A stretch of DNA of 5,819 nt from Promethearchaeota archaeon (GCA_048939465.1 JBHLPL010000117.1:1-5819); one strand, 5' to 3'; shown: positions 1 through 5,819, counted from the first letter of the stretch. The notes: a model not told the origin generated them from the letters alone. Translations and numbers: made by a program.

Positions 1-345
1 CAGCCTAATGGCAAATTTCCCATTCGGGCTGCAAAAGAGCTTGGATTCACGATGGATCAGATTCAGCCTGGTCTTCTGACTCCAGAGATCGGAAACACGT
101 ATTCTGGTTCGACGCCTCTGGGGCTGGCGGCGACTCTGGACATTGCCAAGCCCGAAGATAAGATTCTCGCGGTATCCTACGGTTCTGGTGCTGGAAGCGA
201 TGCGTTCTATATTGTTGTACAAGATCTAATAGAGGAGAAGCAACCTCTCGCCCCTAAAGTACGCGACTATATTACTCGGAAAAGATACGTTTCCTATAAC
301 TGCTACATAAAGTGGCGACGTGGAATAATTGGGCAGCCAACATAA
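1..345 (+). CDS. hmgS: Hydroxymethylglutaryl-CoA synthase, archaeal type (5'-truncated by window edge)
   Basis: Frame +1 is open from base 1 ([20 protein letters not shown]...), so the ORF-track start at 52 is internal. Conserved archaeal HMGS C-terminal motifs [18 protein letters not shown] and [11 protein letters not shown] are present. Followed by thiolase and DUF35 genes, the canonical cluster. Confidence 0.93.
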
Positions 346-359
346 AAGGGGCGAAAAAG

Positions 360-1514
360 ATGCGGAAAGTTGCTATTGTTGGAGTGGGCATGATCCAAGT
401 AACCGACCACTGGGATAAGTCTCTCAGGACGCTTTTTGCTGAAACAGCATTAAAAACTCTAGAGGACGCTGGAGATCCTAAAGTAGATGCGGCCTTTATA
501 GGCAATATGTCTGCGGAAGAATTTACAAAACAGAAGAATATCGCCACACTAGTCTCTGACTTTTCTGGATTCAGAGACATCCCTGCGACGAGAGTCGAAG
601 CGGCTGATGCGTCCGGGGGGAGTGCTATCCTAGAGGGATTCACTGCGGTTGCATCCGGTCTTTATGATACAGTTCTTGTGGGTGGCGTAGAAAAGATGTC
701 GGAAGCCATTTCCTCAGAAACTACCCAAATACTCTCTATGGCTGCCGATCAAGAATATGAAACCTTCCACGGCCTTCCGTTGGTTGGAGCTGCTGCGATG
801 CTCATGAGACTCTATATGCATGAGTTCAAGGCGACTCGGGAGCAATTTGCAGCTTTCACAGTTCAAATGCATGAAAATGCATCCTCGAATCCCTACGCAC
901 AACTACGATTCAAAACGACTCTGGAGAACGCTTTGGGAGCCCGCCCTATTGCAGATCCTATAACTCTGATGGACTGTGCTCCCGCCGGCGATGGAGCGGC
1001 TGCACTGATCCTTTGCTCTCTGGAAAAAGCTAAGAAAATAACGGATACTCCCGTTCAAATAATCGGAGTTGGTCAAGCTACAGACACACTCGCCCTTCAC
1101 GATCGTGAAGATCTCTTAACTTTTGGGGCTGTTTCAAAAGCTACCCAAAAAGCACACAAGATGGCGAAGACCACGCTGGAAGATATAGATGTGTTCGAGA
1201 TCCATGACTCGTACACGATAACTGGCCTGCTCTCCATAGAAGGCCTGGGTCTTTCAGAAAGGGGGGGTGCAGGAATGCTGGTTGAAGACGGGGGAATTGC
1301 AAAAGACTCACAAATTCCGGTTAACCCAAGTGGCGGACTCAAGGCACGTGGGCATCCGGTAGGTGCAACTGGTGTATATCAAGCGGCAGAGATTGCTCTC
1401 CAGTTACGCGGTGAGGCCGATGGGATGGAGGTCAAAGACGCAGAAATCGGGCTAACAGAGAATATTAGCGGAATGGCCTCACTAGCAAACATCCACATAT
1501 TGAAAAGAGTATAG
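360..1514 (+). CDS. Thiolase-family protein (archaeal acetoacetyl-CoA thiolase-like), with both catalytic Cys positions substituted
   Basis: ATG at 360 gives MRKVAIVGVG, a typical thiolase N-terminus (384 aa). Motifs GGVEKM, DCAPAGDGAAA, EIHDSY and NPSGGLKARGHPVGATG are present. The nucleophile motif reads EAADASG (D83) instead of EAACASG, and HDSY replaces HDCF. Confidence 0.9.
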   Translation: MRKVAIVGVGMIQVTDHWDKSLRTLFAETALKTLEDAGDPKVDAAFIGNMSAEEFTKQKNIATLVSDFSGFRDIPATRVEAADASGGSAILEGFTAVASGLYDTVLVGGVEKMSEAISSETTQILSMAADQEYETFHGLPLVGAAAMLMRLYMHEFKATREQFAAFTVQMHENASSNPYAQLRFKTTLENALGARPIADPITLMDCAPAGDGAAALILCSLEKAKKITDTPVQIIGVGQATDTLALHDREDLLTFGAVSKATQKAHKMAKTTLEDIDVFEIHDSYTITGLLSIEGLGLSERGGAGMLVEDGGIAKDSQIPVNPSGGLKARGHPVGATGVYQAAEIALQLRGEADGMEVKDAEIGLTENISGMASLANIHILKRV

Positions 1515-1533: not shown

Positions 1534-1968
1534 ATGAGAGTTCCAATGCGTTGGAGGGAAATTCCCCAACATTATCGTTTAGAAGGATCTAAATGCATAG
1601 AATGCGGCAAAGTGTACTTTCCACCGAAGCTTGTTTGTCCGATCTGCCATTCTACTAGTCTAGAAAAGATCTTTCTTCCTAGAAAGGGGAAGGTAGTGAC
1701 ATTTACGACCGTACGTGTTGCGCCTAAGACCTTTGAGCTCTACGTACCATACACTGTTGCCCTAATTGAACTGGAAGGTGGGACGAGACTGACTGCTCAA
1801 TTAACGGATTGTGACCCCTCGGAGATTTATATTGGAATGCCCGTCGAGACAATCATCCGAAGAATAAACACCGAAGGGAAGACTGGACCGATATTTTACT
1901 GTTATAAGTTCCGGCCTGAACTGGGATCAATGACAACAGATCGATCCAAAGCATCCTCAGAACCATAG
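1534..1968 (+). CDS. DUF35 family Zn-ribbon + OB-fold protein (thiolase/HMGS scaffold subunit)
   Basis: N-terminal CIEC...CPIC zinc ribbon (GSKCIECGKVYFPPKLVCPIC), then an OB-fold with GKVVTFT, PYTVALIELE and IGMPVE. Its position after HMGS and thiolase matches the known archaeal thiolase/HMGS/DUF35 complex. Confidence 0.92.
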   Translation: MRVPMRWREIPQHYRLEGSKCIECGKVYFPPKLVCPICHSTSLEKIFLPRKGKVVTFTTVRVAPKTFELYVPYTVALIELEGGTRLTAQLTDCDPSEIYIGMPVETIIRRINTEGKTGPIFYCYKFRPELGSMTTDRSKASSEP

Positions 1969-2050: not shown

Positions 2051-4348
2051 ATGCCTAAATCAAGAAAGAGTATTTCTGAAGAGGAACAGACCTCCACGAT
2101 TCTCTCTGCAATTTCTAGCTCGCTGCGATCTGAAATCCTCAAACTTCTAAGTCGTGAAACGTCCCTATCGTTCACGGAGATTATGCAGGGTATCGATATT
2201 GATCCTCGTAATGCGGGTAGATTTGGCTATCACCTACGTGAGCTAAAACGGGCAAATCTCATAACGGGCGGACCGGCAACGGGCTATTCTCTGACACCCA
2301 TAGGAGAAAAAGTAGTAGACTTCATATGGACACTTGAAGATATAAGCAGGAAGTATTTGGATGAAATATTCGTCAGAACTTCAAGAATCTCGATGGAGCA
2401 CTTCGATCGAGGCAAAATAACAGAATCATTAGTAAGAGAAGCCAGTGTTCCGAAAACCCTTGCAGAGAAGATAGCGAAGGAAGCAGAAGATAGACTAATG
2501 AAACTGAAAGTACAGTATCTAACTTCTTCCTTGATTCGTGAATTCGTGAATGCTATCCTCCTCGAAAAGGGTTTTGAAGAATACCGTCATGCACTAACCC
2601 GTCTTGGTCTCCCTGTTTATGATATCACTCAGCTTATCAAGAATCCGTCATTTAAAGCAACCGACTCAAGTCCTGAAATTGTGCATAAATTGGCAGGAGA
2701 TGCTGTATTAGAGCAATACCTCTTTATGAAGATACTCCCTAGAAAGGTCGCAGATGCGCATCTTTCTGGAGCTATTCATATACCGCATGCCAGCTACTGG
2801 GTCTTAAAGCCAAACGAAATTTGCCATGACCTGCATACTTTGCTTCAACGAAATTTCTTTTCGGCAAAGCCTCCTAAAACGTTAAGAGATACCCTTGGTC
2901 AGATATCCATGATTATTGGAAATACACGAGCAAACGTTATTAGCGGGCAGGTTTTTGATCATTTTAACGTCTTTTTGGCACCATATGCGAGGGCAAAGGA
3001 CATAAAAGAAACAAAGAAAGCACTGAGAGTCTTCTTTGCTGAACTGAACAATACCTTCTTCAGTCAAGAGAAACGTCCGAACAGCACTATTCTCCTTGAA
3101 TTCACAATCCCCTCTTACCTCAGAGATACTCCGGCAATTGGACCGAACAATAGGATAGTTGGTACATATGGGGAGTATGCTGATGAAGCCAGTTTCATAT
3201 TAAACGCAATACTGGATATTTTGATGAAAGGCGATATGCTGGGGAGACCTTTCTTCAATCCAAACATCGTACTAAGAATAAGACCTGAAACGAGGGAAAC
3301 CTCTTTACAACTTCTACTGAAATCTCATAAGTTGGCCTCGAAATGGGGAACTCCCTACTTCATAAACATGCGTCCAGATTGGCAGACTCTGAATGCTTGT
3401 TACACCGGGAACCTCACACGTTTAGAATCTTCGTGGAAGAGTAATTGGGATCTGGGTGTCAATCGCACTGGAAATCTTGATTGGGTTGCAGTAAATCTCC
3501 CTCAAGTTGCTATTGAATCGAAGGGAGATGAGGAATCGTTGTTCGGTTTACTTGACGAGTATTTGAACATAATTTACGAAACTCTTACAGTAAAGCATAA
3601 AACAATTTATGAAAGGCTTCGAAAAGATCATCTACTTCCGCTACTCATGCATAATATTGATGGTGAACCTTACTACCGTTTAGAAAACGCAACTCATACC
3701 GTCGCTTTCTTGGGGTTAGATGAGGCCGTTAGAAAGTGCACCGGCAGCTCTATACATGAGGGGAGAGATGCTCTAGATTTTGCCAAGACTATACTAAATC
3801 ACCTGGCCGATTTTGCAGAGAACTCCACTAAAATCTCTGGTTTAAGATGGAACACAATGCAGATGCCCGCAAGTTCTGTTGCACATAGACTTGCGAAACT
3901 AGATGCAGAGCATTTCGGATCCGATAATTCAATTGCACAGAATGCTGGAGCCACACCCTTCTACAGCACCAGCAACATACTCGCGTCCGCCTCAGTACCG
4001 TTCGAAAAAAGAGTGGAACTGGAATCACAAATCCATCCTATGTTGCTGGGTGGGCACATGCTTAGCATTCCTTTATCGGATTCTCGTATTACATCAAAAA
4101 GATTGTTGAAAGCTACCGAGAGAATCTGCGATTCCGATGTTGGTTTCTTTGCCTATAGCAGACGTTTGACTTTCTGCAGCAGGTGTTTAAGCACATATCA
4201 GGGCGTCCAGCAGAAGTGCTCCTCTTGTGATCTGTCTGGCACAAATCTGAAAAGTTTTGACCGAGCGATTGGCACCTACGGACAGTTAGATAAACTAGAA
4301 TCCAGCCTGAAACTCGCAATTATTGGTCAGAATAGATATTCTCTCTAA
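2051..4348 (+). CDS. nrdD: Winged-HTH (ArsR-like) + ATP-cone + class III ribonucleotide reductase (NrdD)-like fusion, catalytic motifs degenerate
   Basis: aa ~15-95: wHTH (SSLRSEILKLLS...SFTEIM...GRFGYHLRELKRANLI...YSLTPIG). aa ~105-185: ATP-cone (VRTSRISMEHFDRGKITESL...LIREFVNAILLEKG). The body has NrdD hallmarks SGQVFDHFNVFLAPY, GRPFFNPN, WGTPYFIN, RTGNLDWVAVNLP, LGGH and a C-terminal CSRC-x10-CSSC Zn site. No NrdG activase gene is in the window. Confidence 0.85.
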   Translation: MPKSRKSISEEEQTSTILSAISSSLRSEILKLLSRETSLSFTEIMQGIDIDPRNAGRFGYHLRELKRANLITGGPATGYSLTPIGEKVVDFIWTLEDISRKYLDEIFVRTSRISMEHFDRGKITESLVREASVPKTLAEKIAKEAEDRLMKLKVQYLTSSLIREFVNAILLEKGFEEYRHALTRLGLPVYDITQLIKNPSFKATDSSPEIVHKLAGDAVLEQYLFMKILPRKVADAHLSGAIHIPHASYWVLKPNEICHDLHTLLQRNFFSAKPPKTLRDTLGQISMIIGNTRANVISGQVFDHFNVFLAPYARAKDIKETKKALRVFFAELNNTFFSQEKRPNSTILLEFTIPSYLRDTPAIGPNNRIVGTYGEYADEASFILNAILDILMKGDMLGRPFFNPNIVLRIRPETRETSLQLLLKSHKLASKWGTPYFINMRPDWQTLNACYTGNLTRLESSWKSNWDLGVNRTGNLDWVAVNLPQVAIESKGDEESLFGLLDEYLNIIYETLTVKHKTIYERLRKDHLLPLLMHNIDGEPYYRLENATHTVAFLGLDEAVRKCTGSSIHEGRDALDFAKTILNHLADFAENSTKISGLRWNTMQMPASSVAHRLAKLDAEHFGSDNSIAQNAGATPFYSTSNILASASVPFEKRVELESQIHPMLLGGHMLSIPLSDSRITSKRLLKATERICDSDVGFFAYSRRLTFCSRCLSTYQGVQQKCSSCDLSGTNLKSFDRAIGTYGQLDKLESSLKLAIIGQNRYSL

Positions 4349-4375: not shown

Positions 4376-4417
4376 TGGTAGCGGGGCCGGATTTATCCGG
4401 ACTGAAAAGAGACCGCT
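4376..4417 (-). repeat. Intronless, degenerate minihelix-like copy of the tRNA-iMet ends (AGCGG...CCCCGCTACCA)
   Basis: The - strand reads AGCGG TCTCTTTTCAGT CCGGA TAAA TCCGG CC CCGCT A CCA. The last 11 nt are identical to the spliced tRNA 3' end and the first 5 nt to its 5' end. It starts 1 nt after the tRNA CCA. Confidence 0.5.
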
Positions 4418-4423
4418 ATGGTA

Positions 4424-4456
4424 TTCCCCCGGGATGACGGTGTGTCTTGCTCCCGA
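4424..4456 (-). other. tRNA intron 6, position 71/72 (33 nt, acceptor stem)
   Basis: CCCC-GC|T-CGGGA...TCCCG-GGGG-AA|T: 4-bp central helix, two 3-nt bulges and a 5-bp intron helix. Removal restores U72, A73 and CCA. Confidence 0.8.
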
Positions 4457-4468
4457 GCGGGGGATGGA

Positions 4469-4498
4469 ATTTCATGGGTGCGGGCCTGCCGCCCCGGA
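4469..4498 (-). other. tRNA intron 5, position 59/60 (30 nt, T-loop)
   Basis: GATGG-TTCA-AA|T...TGAA-AT|T-CCATC: the T-stem is the outer helix and TTCA/TGAA the central helix. Removal restores TTCAAAT. Confidence 0.88.
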
Positions 4499-4512
4499 TT
4501 TGAACCATCGAT

Positions 4513-4535
4513 CTCCCGCAACTCCTCGGAGTTGA
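4513..4535 (-). other. tRNA intron 4, position 45/46 (23 nt, variable loop)
   Basis: CCCG-AG|T-CAACTC cgag GAGTTG-CGGG-AG|A: perfect central and intron helices. Removal restores AGATC. Confidence 0.88.
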
Positions 4536-4543
4536 CTCGGGGT

Positions 4544-4559
4544 ATCTCAGAGCCCCTCA
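4544..4559 (-). other. tRNA intron 3, canonical position 37/38 (16 nt)
   Basis: GGGG-CTCA-TA|T-GAG ggg CTC-TGAG-AT|A-CCCC: a strict BHB. Confidence 0.93.
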
Positions 4560-4576
4560 TATGAGCCCCGCGGGAT

Positions 4577-4589
4577 TTCAGGCCACGGT
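4577..4589 (-). other. tRNA intron 2, position 20a/21 (13 nt, D-loop)
   Basis: CAGG-AG|A-CCGTGG-CCTG-AA|A: 4-bp central helix and two purine 3-nt bulges; flanking helices relaxed. Confidence 0.78.
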
Positions 4590-4596
4590 CTCCTGA

Positions 4597-4625
4597 TTCG
4601 GCTCAAACGCCAATATGCGTCTGGC
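4597..4625 (-). other. tRNA intron 1, best-fit position 15/16 (29 nt, D-loop)
   Basis: TG-GGGT-AG|G-C CAGACGC atattg GCGTTTG A-GCCG-AA|T-CA: central helix 3 of 4 paired, 2-bp outer helix, 7-bp intron helix in register. Shifted junctions (16/17, 17/17a) give no central helix. Confidence 0.7.
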
Positions 4626-4717
4626 CTACCCCACCCCGCTTTCCAGTGTTACATATTACATTAATTGAGAGACAGTGTGAGCCTCTAAGGACATTTCCTG
4701 CCCTGAAATTCTTTTGC

Positions 4718-4786: not shown

Positions 4787-4938
4787 AATTCATCTCCACT
4801 CTTTCGGGTGGGGTTTTCCTGGGAGAAGAAAATAAAAGTACCCACTGCTAGATTTCAGTTCATATTCGTGCTTGGATCACTCATTTAAAAGAAAGCTCCA
4901 AGTATTCATTACGAGATTCAAAGCGGTTATCTGAGGTG

Positions 4939-5819
4939 ATGGGATTGAGCAAGCACAGTGATAGGTTTGTTAAGAATATGGAACTTAACCCTGAAATCAC
5001 GGTTGATGAATTAATAGGCGAATTTAGAAAATCGGGAGCATTTGGTGCAGGTAGATTGGGTCTTGCTGCGGAGATACTAGGAAGGATGTTTCGCAAAGAG
5101 AGATTGCTGAAGTTTCTAGGATTGGCGGGTGCGCTGGTTCCAGCCGGCATTCGAAGAATCGTTTCCCGTCTTATTTACGATGGCCTGATTGATGTTTTAG
5201 TGACCACCGGTGCAAATATAACACACGATTTAGTTGAAGCTTTTGGAGAAAGACATGAGAAAGCATACATACAGAAAAATGATTCACAACTCAGAAAGCT
5301 GGGAATTAACCGGATATTTGATATCTATATTAGAGATAGTGCTTTCGAAGCTCTTGAAGATAATATTCAGGCTATTTTAAGCAATATAAGTGAGGAAAAA
5401 CGCATAGACGGACTTGCTGTTTATGAACTAATATGGGAAATTGGGAGGAGGATTAAAGACCGACACTCAATAGTTAGAAGTGCCTTCAAAAAGAAGATTC
5501 CGATATTCTGTCCAGCTGTTACCGATTCTATCTTAGGTCTTCAACTATGGTTATTCAGGCAAAGAGAAAAACTAAACATCGATGTCATAAAGGATTTGCA
5601 GAAAATAATTGACATAGCTTACGAGTCAGAAGAGGCGGGAGTTATAATTTTGGGCGGTGGAGTTCCAAAAAACCATATTCTCCAAACCATGTTAATAACG
5701 GGAAAAGGATTTGACTATGCTATACAAATAACAACTGATAGACCAGAGTCTGGGGGTCTAAGTGGTGCCTCACTTCAAGAAGCCCAATCCTGGGGAAAGA
5801 TTAAATCGGATGCCCTGTG
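4939..5819 (+). CDS. dys: Deoxyhypusine synthase (3'-truncated by window edge)
   Basis: Frame +1 is open to the window end, so it is absent from the ORF track: ...GAFGAGRL...FLGLAGALVPAGIR...LVTTGANITHDLVEAFG...GINRIFDI...IPIFCPAVTDSILG...LGGGVPKNHILQ...DYAIQITTDRPESGGLSGASLQEAQSWGKI. The catalytic Lys of SWGK is at 5797-5799. The start may be TTG 4945, since the SD GAGGTG at 4933-4938 abuts ATG 4939. Confidence 0.95.
   Translation, partial: MGLSKHSDRFVKNMELNPEITVDELIGEFRKSGAFGAGRLGLAAEILGRMFRKERLLKFLGLAGALVPAGIRRIVSRLIYDGLIDVLVTTGANITHDLVEAFGERHEKAYIQKNDSQLRKLGINRIFDIYIRDSAFEALEDNIQAILSNISEEKRIDGLAVYELIWEIGRRIKDRHSIVRSAFKKKIPIFCPAVTDSILGLQLWLFRQREKLNIDVIKDLQKIIDIAYESEEAGVIILGGGVPKNHILQTMLITGKGFDYAIQITTDRPESGGLSGASLQEAQSWGKIKSDAL

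Follow-up and report, generated by a model that had tools for sequence, protein, structure and literature searches.

How HMG-CoA (3-hydroxy-3-methylglutaryl-coenzyme A) could be made by an archaeon in which the thiolase encoded next to HMG-CoA synthase (HMGS) has lost its nucleophilic cysteine is the question raised by the DNA analysed here, a contig of 5819 bases (C63), the whole of which is referred to as the window. The complex of thiolase, HMGS, and a DUF35 protein is the accepted entry to archaeal isoprenoid membrane-lipid synthesis, and its stated purpose is that channelling pulls the unfavourable thiolase reaction forward. The window belongs to a genome of 1.96 Mb (G000), a metagenome bin of 152 contigs that is 91% complete, and its source is a relative of the Odin group among the Asgard archaea, given that the closest named homologue is labelled "Promethearchaeota archaeon" by NCBI and that proteins of relatives in the same order are labelled Odinarchaeota. 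We describe here that the thiolase-like gene at 360–1514 encodes Asp at the position of the nucleophilic Cys, and that its product is likely, as judged from sequence comparisons and a structural model, to be a pseudo-thiolase kept as a scaffold and as the CoA-site partner of HMGS.

Loss of the nucleophilic cysteine in the HMGS-linked thiolase-like protein

The features of the window that concern this subunit and its partners are as follows.

1–345, plus strand: C-terminal 114 codons of HMGS, truncated by the contig start
360–1514, plus strand: thiolase-fold protein of 384 amino acids (Pfam Thiolase_N and Thiolase_C_1)
606–608, plus strand: GAT, encoding Asp83 at the position of the nucleophilic Cys, from alignment to 6ESQ/6ET9 and 7YVY
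1203–1214, plus strand: HDSY replacing HDCF (the HDxF motif), with His282 kept, the acid/base Cys replaced by Ser284, and Phe replaced by Tyr285
1353–1355, plus strand: His332 of the GHP motif, kept, from translation of the open reading frame
1534–1968, plus strand: DUF35 protein with a zinc ribbon (CxxC...CxxC) and an oligonucleotide/oligosaccharide-binding (OB) fold (Pfam zf-ChsH2 and OB_ChsH2_C)

The thiolase-like gene thus sits between hmgS and the DUF35 gene, in an order that is repeated in 20 related loci and that is the rule across 31 Asgard genomes. Translation of the open reading frame confirmed the motifs on which the initial annotation had been based, in that residues 79–87 read VEAADASGG, residues 281–286 read IHDSYT (CAT GAC TCG TAC for the HDSY part), residues 330–334, with His332, read RGHPV, and the protein has just two Cys residues, C206 (MDCAP) and C219 (ILCSL), both of which lie elsewhere. 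When the protein was aligned with solved thiolases by HMMER, Asp83 was placed opposite the nucleophilic Cys of 6ESQ/6ET9 (veaaCasg) and of 7YVY, and Ser284 was placed opposite the Cys of HDCF in 6ESQ.

The claim of the initial annotation that both catalytic cysteines are gone is correct for the residues themselves, but the two losses differ in weight. The third HDxF position among the 120 closest homologues was Ala in 43, Ser in 32, Cys in 28, Thr in 14, Pro in 2, and Asn in 1, so that Ala, Ser, or Thr was present in 89 of the 120, and 7YVY reads HDAF yet retains the nucleophile (EAACASGG). Accordingly, the acid/base Cys is not a defining residue of the orthologue group and its absence is ordinary, whereas the loss of Cys83 alone is unusual. 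This is in line with the report that the archaeal motif is written HDxF, with its His and not x being essential, and that activity is abolished both by H284A when it is introduced into the archaeal complex and by H294Y in a homologue from Pseudomonas (PMC12960953). We also considered C206 (DCAP) as a replacement nucleophile and rejected it; this residue is not a compensating change, because it is also found in homologues that bear the nucleophilic Cys, such as 6ESQ (MHCSP) and P0071.

Orthology to the archaeal acetoacetyl-CoA thiolase and selection on the gene

The closest solved sequence to the thiolase-like protein was that of 7YVY (E-value, 4.5e-112; 46% identity), and the match to the 6ESQ thiolase covered residues 1–381 with an E-value of 3.8e-96. 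An AlphaFold2 (AF2) model built on 58 sequences had a predicted local distance difference test score (pLDDT) of 96 and was matched by Foldseek to chain C of 6ET9 with a template modelling (TM) score of 0.97 and a root-mean-square deviation of 1.3 Å. The DUF35 protein likewise had chain E of 6ESQ as its best match in the PDB (E-value, 1.3e-33). Because each of the three products of the operon has its counterpart subunit in 6ESQ/6ET9 as its best match and the model superposes on chain C of 6ET9, the thiolase-like gene is, by descent, an orthologue of the HMGS-linked archaeal acetoacetyl-CoA thiolase, as far as sequence and model comparison can place it.

The Asp codon is shared by other genomes. 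The genome of the same genus designated G002 has GAT at the identical codon, and three proteins from other sources with 85–90% identity (P0002–P0004) all have VEAADASGG and IHDSYT. In a comparison with the congener by the Nei–Gojobori method, the ratio of nonsynonymous to synonymous substitution rates (dN/dS) was 0.097 for the thiolase-like gene, 0.064 for the HMGS fragment, 0.091 for the DUF35 gene, and 0.045 for a canonical thiolase paralogue on another contig (C138). Thus, strong purifying selection acts on the thiolase-like gene, to a degree similar to that on its operon partners.

Distribution and history of the loss

The phylogeny of homologues of this type and their gene neighbourhoods in related Asgard genomes, for which the initial annotation had called, were examined. 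In the 120 closest homologues, the nucleophile column held Cys in 84, Gly in 20, Asp in 8, Glu in 4, Ala in 1, and Pro in 1. A survey of the HMGS-linked thiolase in the 31 Asgard genomes found Asp in the genus of the window and in one other family, Glu in four Odin-like genomes belonging to the order of the window, in which Phe additionally takes the place of His282, Gly in one Baldr-like genome, Asn in one genome, in which GHP is also changed to GDP, and Cys in the remaining genomes. Asp is reached from TGY by two base changes, for example by way of Gly. The codons found at this column in the relatives were GAA/GAG for Glu, GGA for Gly, and AAT for Asn, with Ala also occurring, and GAT, GAA/GAG, GGA, and AAT are each one step apart.

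Trees were inferred by FastTree with 147 rows and by IQ-TREE with 74 rows, and both agreed on the clade and on the number of changes. The window's clade is made up of Cys-less proteins throughout, namely those of its own genus (Asp), a Jordarchaeum-labelled group (Asp; approximately 57% identity), P0006 (Gly), P0017 (Ala), and the Odin-like genomes (Glu), and was supported by values of 95 in FastTree and 88 in the Shimodaira–Hasegawa-like approximate likelihood ratio test (SH-aLRT) of IQ-TREE. Because this clade spans the genus of the window, the Odin-like family, and the Jordarchaeum-labelled group, the Cys-less state is considered to be old and maintained. Across the trees, at least five changes between Cys and non-Cys residues were required, with at least five independent losses among the HMGS-linked orthologues, and the operon order was kept. 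A single clade of all Cys-less rows was rejected at a cost of 245 log-likelihood units, with a p value of 7e-52 in the approximately unbiased test (p-AU), which is generous, since the constrained group was defined by the trait itself. Loss of the nucleophile, as read from these sequences, is therefore recurrent across Asgard lineages and not peculiar to this genome.

A set of 46 non-redundant orthologues that bear the Cys was then set against 10 non-redundant orthologues without it, which came from separate lineages. Among 68 positions that were at least 90% conserved in the Cys-bearing set, just four (82, 83, 282, and 285) lost conservation in the Cys-less set, and 53 of the 68 held the same residue in it, the retained positions including E80, S85, and G86, which neighbour the nucleophile in its loop, as well as D211-G212-A214, G325-K328, and G331-G338. 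Such a decay confined to catalytic positions is, at the level of sequence, the signature of lost catalysis with structure and pocket kept. Tyr285 was specific to the window's Cys-less clade. Decay of the site has gone further in sister lineages, with His282 replaced by Phe in the Odin-like proteins and, in P0006, His282 replaced by Ala and His332 by Asn.

A wider sample was obtained from a library of 1.8 billion proteins as the best 150 representative clusters (P0121–P0270). The nucleophilic Cys was absent from 67 of the 147 closest 50%-identity clusters, the residue in its place being Asp in 15, Gly in 14, Ser in 12, Glu in 10, Pro in 5, and others. The Asp, Glu, Ser, and Thr variants mostly keep both catalytic histidines. 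Both were kept in 12 of 22 clusters with Asp or Glu versus 0 of 14 with Gly, counted without correction for relatedness, which hints at two kinds of Cys-less proteins.

The HMGS partner and possible sources of acetoacetyl-CoA

The HMGS fragment in the window retains the Asn of the Glu-Cys-His-Asn (E-C-H-N) tetrad (IGNTYS), with the position of the His just upstream of the contig start, and is 89% identical to the full-length HMGS of the congener G002 (L005:407–1471), in which all four residues are kept and which matches the 6ESQ HMGS over its whole length with an E-value of 4e-142. The tetrad was kept in all 19 full-length linked HMGS genes (19/19), whether the thiolase partner has the Cys or not, and the HMGS proteins of Cys-less operons differ from those of Cys-bearing operons by conservative substitutions only. 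A second HMGS or an acetoacetyl-CoA synthase similar to beta-ketoacyl-ACP synthase III (KAS III) was not found in G000.

The genome does encode other thiolases. A search for a second thiolase with EAACASG and HDCF, as had been proposed with the initial annotation, found two canonical thiolase/DUF35 pairs. One, at C138:93312–94586, has EAACASAG and HDCF, is followed by its own DUF35 gene, and stands alone as a pair; the other, at C107:11565–12491, has EAACATGS and HDCF, is also followed by its own DUF35 gene, and is truncated by the contig end. The C107 pair heads a minus-strand cluster (G000:C107:1–12492, L037) with a 3-hydroxyacyl-CoA dehydrogenase and an enoyl-CoA hydratase, and, judging from its gene content, this cluster resembles a short-chain acyl-CoA module of the butyrate/isobutyrate type. 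Its other genes encode an acyl-CoA ligase, the large and B12 subunits of a B12-dependent acyl-CoA mutase, MeaB, a corrinoid adenosyltransferase, and an amino-acid permease. The complete Odin-like genome G003 has two thiolases and no more, one being the Cys-less protein linked to HMGS and the other belonging to a canonical pair that stands alone, and a 3-hydroxyacyl-CoA dehydrogenase was not found there, so that the canonical pair is the sole evident source of acetoacetyl-CoA in that lineage. Asgard genomes are reported to have an average of 3.8 thiolase/DUF35 pairs (preprint, bioRxiv 2024.07.05.601840).

There is also a third thiolase-like fragment at a contig end (G000:C25:6831–7550, L038), adjoining an acyl-CoA dehydrogenase gene. 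It is very divergent, with 30% identity, no nucleophile motif, and no Pfam match at an E-value of 0.001, and a solitary DUF35 gene (G000:C3:177–659, L039), located where contig C3 starts, may be its partner across an assembly gap.

A probable pseudo-thiolase as the partner of HMGS

The thiolase-like protein has lost an essential catalytic residue while its fold, its partners, and purifying selection on it are kept, which is what characterises a pseudoenzyme. Among the options raised by the initial annotation, that of a non-catalytic scaffold with a second thiolase elsewhere is thus favoured by the presence of the canonical pairs, the purifying selection, and the decay at catalytic positions only.

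The complex of Methanothermococcus, which is said to have been described by Vogeli and colleagues in 2018, suggests why such a subunit would be retained. As that work is cited in a later paper, HMGS alone is inactive, thiolase alone is insoluble, and the two share a fused CoA-binding chamber (cited in PMC12960953). The Cys-less subunit of the window would be unable to form the acetyl-cysteine intermediate and may be retained because HMGS needs it; together with DUF35, it would hold HMGS in the active assembly, and it would supply its half of the shared CoA-binding chamber. The intact HMGS would then make HMG-CoA from acetoacetyl-CoA provided by the separate canonical thiolase/DUF35 pairs (C138 and C107) and, in this genus, possibly also by the oxidation of 3-hydroxybutyryl-CoA through the C107 cluster. 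Asp83 probably takes the place of the thiolate as the negative counterpart of the histidines in the active site, keeping the shape of the pocket. Loss of the nucleophile could, in addition, stop the complex from thiolysing imported acetoacetyl-CoA.

Several points weigh against this explanation. His282 and His332 are kept in the window's lineage, and the far more frequent retention of both histidines in clusters with Asp or Glu than in those with Gly could mean a working site. A complex whose thiolase is not live would lose the channelling that is held to overcome the unfavourable equilibrium of the thiolase reaction, and the explanation does not account for how HMGS would be supplied with enough acetoacetyl-CoA. 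Moreover, neither HMG-CoA reductase (PF00368) nor the N-terminal half of HMGS (PF01154) was found in the 91%-complete G000, although the reductase occurs in the congener G001 as well as in the Odin-like genomes and, hence, the pathway exists in the group.

Other explanations for the Cys-less subunit

An unlikely, but still appreciable, alternative is that Asp83 (Glu in the Odin-like proteins) performs Cys-independent chemistry with His282 and His332, so that the subunit still makes acetoacetyl-CoA or another product in the complex. The carboxylate could be the nucleophile, with an acetyl-aspartyl anhydride formed in the manner of CoA-transferases, or it could serve as a general base. The recurrence of acidic residues among the Cys-less clusters and their retention of the histidines, uncorrected for relatedness as they are, speak for it, as do the conservation of His282 and His332 in all Asp-type lineages near the window and the invariance of the pocket motifs DGA, GGLK, and GHP.GATG. 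However, the same well-supported clade has Gly and Ala at the site with the remaining protein equally conserved, and the Odin-like proteins with Glu do not have His282, which is essential by mutagenesis. The histidines, moreover, do not require a carboxylate for their retention, because the Baldr-like lineage has Gly with both histidines. A carboxylate nucleophile is, to our knowledge, without precedent in the thiolase fold, which also counts against this chemistry. The more specific form, in which Asp83, His282, and His332 make up a working site for acetyl transfer through an acyl-anhydride on the carboxylate or for enolate formation and the complex still makes and channels acetoacetyl-CoA, seems to us improbable; if true, the mechanism would be one not known from the thiolase superfamily.

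A retro-aldol or other lyase reaction of the Ltp2/Sal kind, or a malonyl-CoA decarboxylation similar to that of KSQ, with the histidine pair used without Cys, is very unlikely. The initial annotation had drawn an analogy to Ltp2, and proteins of the thiolase fold that have no Cys and pair with DUF35 do function as aldolases (PMC12329534). The steroid aldolases Ltp2 and Sal (6OK1 and 9MYR), which were among the fold matches, are Cys-poor proteins of the sterol carrier protein 2 (SCP2)-thiolase fold that work with DUF35, and the clade-specific Tyr285 could be taken to point in the same direction. The analogy fails at the motif, on which an aldolase of this type was rejected: the catalytic Tyr of Ltp2 and Sal is the first residue (YDHF/YDCY), where the window protein has His (HDSY), and the last-position Tyr of Sal is dispensable, with kcat decreased only 7.6-fold in Y305F (PMC12329534). 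Furthermore, the window protein has 22% identity to Ltp2 (22–23% to Ltp2 and Sal) versus 43–46% to the archaeal thiolases, its gene is located in a mevalonate-entry operon and not in a steroid-catabolic context, and its DUF35 partner is encoded by a separate gene (1534–1968), unlike that of Ltp2/Sal, which is the C-terminal domain of a hydratase. As for the decarboxylase, it would be without an evident source of malonyl-CoA, because an acyl-CoA carboxyltransferase (PF01039) was not found in G000.

It is no more probable, and perhaps slightly less so, that the complex serves a non-canonical HMGS reaction for which the thiolase step is no longer needed, as the initial annotation had also considered. 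A dead thiolase next to a maintained HMGS would fit this explanation, but the HMGS is ordinary in its tetrad and its sequence: it shows only conservative differences from the HMGS of Cys-bearing operons, the full-length copy of the congener matches the Methanothermococcus enzyme throughout, and HMG-CoA reductase is present in the genus and in its Odin-like relatives. Lastly, an artefact of assembly or sequencing, or a pseudogene in decay, for which the short contig (5.8 kb) in a 152-contig metagenome bin could be adduced, can be practically dismissed, a single sequencing error having been called unlikely by the initial annotation too. The codon recurs in an independent genome, three more proteins of different origin share the motif, the frame is intact with a dN/dS of 0.10 and a model pLDDT of 96, and conservation reaches at least 90% at 87 sites across the Cys-less lineages.

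Other genes of the window

The remainder of the window contains the following features.

2051–4348, plus strand: protein with a winged helix-turn-helix (wHTH), an ATP cone, and an NrdD-like part, from domain matches
4376–4640, minus strand: candidate initiator-type tRNA-Met, interrupted, 265 nucleotides, from conservation and alignment
4936–5817, plus strand: deoxyhypusine synthase, truncated by the contig end

The gene at 2051–4348 encodes 765 amino acids, with an N-terminal winged helix (DUF7347/ArsR-like) and an ATP cone fused to a very divergent anaerobic ribonucleotide reductase of the NrdD type, for which the best PDB match had an E-value of merely 8e-17. Its C-terminus has a Cys-rich ribbon, with RAIGTYG at the site expected for the glycyl-radical motif, and the gene is likewise found after DUF35 in the congener G002.

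Between this gene and that for deoxyhypusine synthase lies the conserved RNA gene of 265 nucleotides, which was detected neither by ARAGORN nor by Rfam. It is 88% identical in the congener and 74–79% identical in the Odin-like genomes, where it is directly downstream of the HMGS-thiolase-DUF35 operon. The alignment holds every segment of an initiator-type tRNA-Met, namely A1:U72, a CAU anticodon loop, a GATGG-TTCAAAT-CCATC T arm, and an encoded CCA, and these are split by five or six variable insertions, several with compensatory changes; one insertion of 28 nucleotides in the T loop is specific to the genus of the window. The gene thus looks like a heavily interrupted initiator-type tRNA-Met gene, as far as its sequence indicates. 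When the insertions were removed in silico, ARAGORN called a tRNA-Met(cat), a check that is partly circular because the exons were chosen by hand by the analyst. No other tRNA-Met was found in G000 by ARAGORN, even with anticodon-loop introns allowed, the total being 25 tRNA genes, which suggests that, in this genome, the majority of tRNA genes carry interruptions at non-canonical positions. In some Asgard families, single tRNA genes with as many as five intervening sequences have been reported (preprint, 10.64898/2026.10.13.758758).

Comparison with known systems and significance

The locus resembles that of the thiolase/HMGS/DUF35 complex of Methanothermococcus thermolithotrophicus (6ESQ/6ET9) in having the same three genes in the same order with subunit-by-subunit best matches, the same fold (TM score, 0.97), and the His of HDxF, the His of GHP, and the HMGS tetrad all kept. 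It differs in the replacement of the nucleophilic Cys by Asp and of the HDCF Cys by Ser, by which the thiolase half-reaction and the channelling of acetoacetyl-CoA would be impossible by the known mechanism. The thiolase PFC_04095 of Pyrococcus furiosus (7YVY) is similar in the absence of the second cysteine, as seen in its HDAF, but retains the nucleophile. An archaeal SCP2-type thiolase fold without a nucleophilic Cys is also found in ST0096 of Sulfolobus tokodaii (4YZO), which has Ser in DNTSGSGG and reads HDMA at the second motif, although it has 33% identity and belongs to a different branch; a published function of ST0096 was not found.

Literature searches brought up no paper on an archaeal or Asgard thiolase that is linked to HMGS and without the Cys, and the nearest published idea is its mirror image in bacteria. 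PhlACB, MucABC, and the ACAT/HMGS-DUF35 complex of Pseudomonas fluorescens have the same three-part architecture, in which one of the subunits is catalytically dead but remains necessary for assembly and activity (PMC12960953). In those complexes, it is the HMGS-like unit that is without the tetrad, with the Cys of the thiolase-like unit kept, whereas in the window the thiolase is predicted to be dead and HMGS to be live. The Friedel–Crafts units PhlC and MucB differ again, in that they keep the Cys and have lost HDxF, whereas the window protein has lost the Cys and keeps the His of HDxF, with the tetrad of the linked HMGS also kept.

Here and in several other Asgard lineages, the thiolase half of the complex is without its nucleophile, HMGS is intact, and the subunit is under strong selection. 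If the pseudo-thiolase explanation is true, these organisms would feed the pathway with acetoacetyl-CoA made elsewhere, and the thiolase subunit would have a structural or CoA-holding role that is separable from catalysis. In that case, the label "acetyl-CoA acetyltransferase" would be wrong for these lineages, as would reconstructions that count this gene as the first step of the mevalonate pathway. The finding also bears on the wiring of lipid and fatty-acid metabolism in the closest archaeal relatives of eukaryotes.

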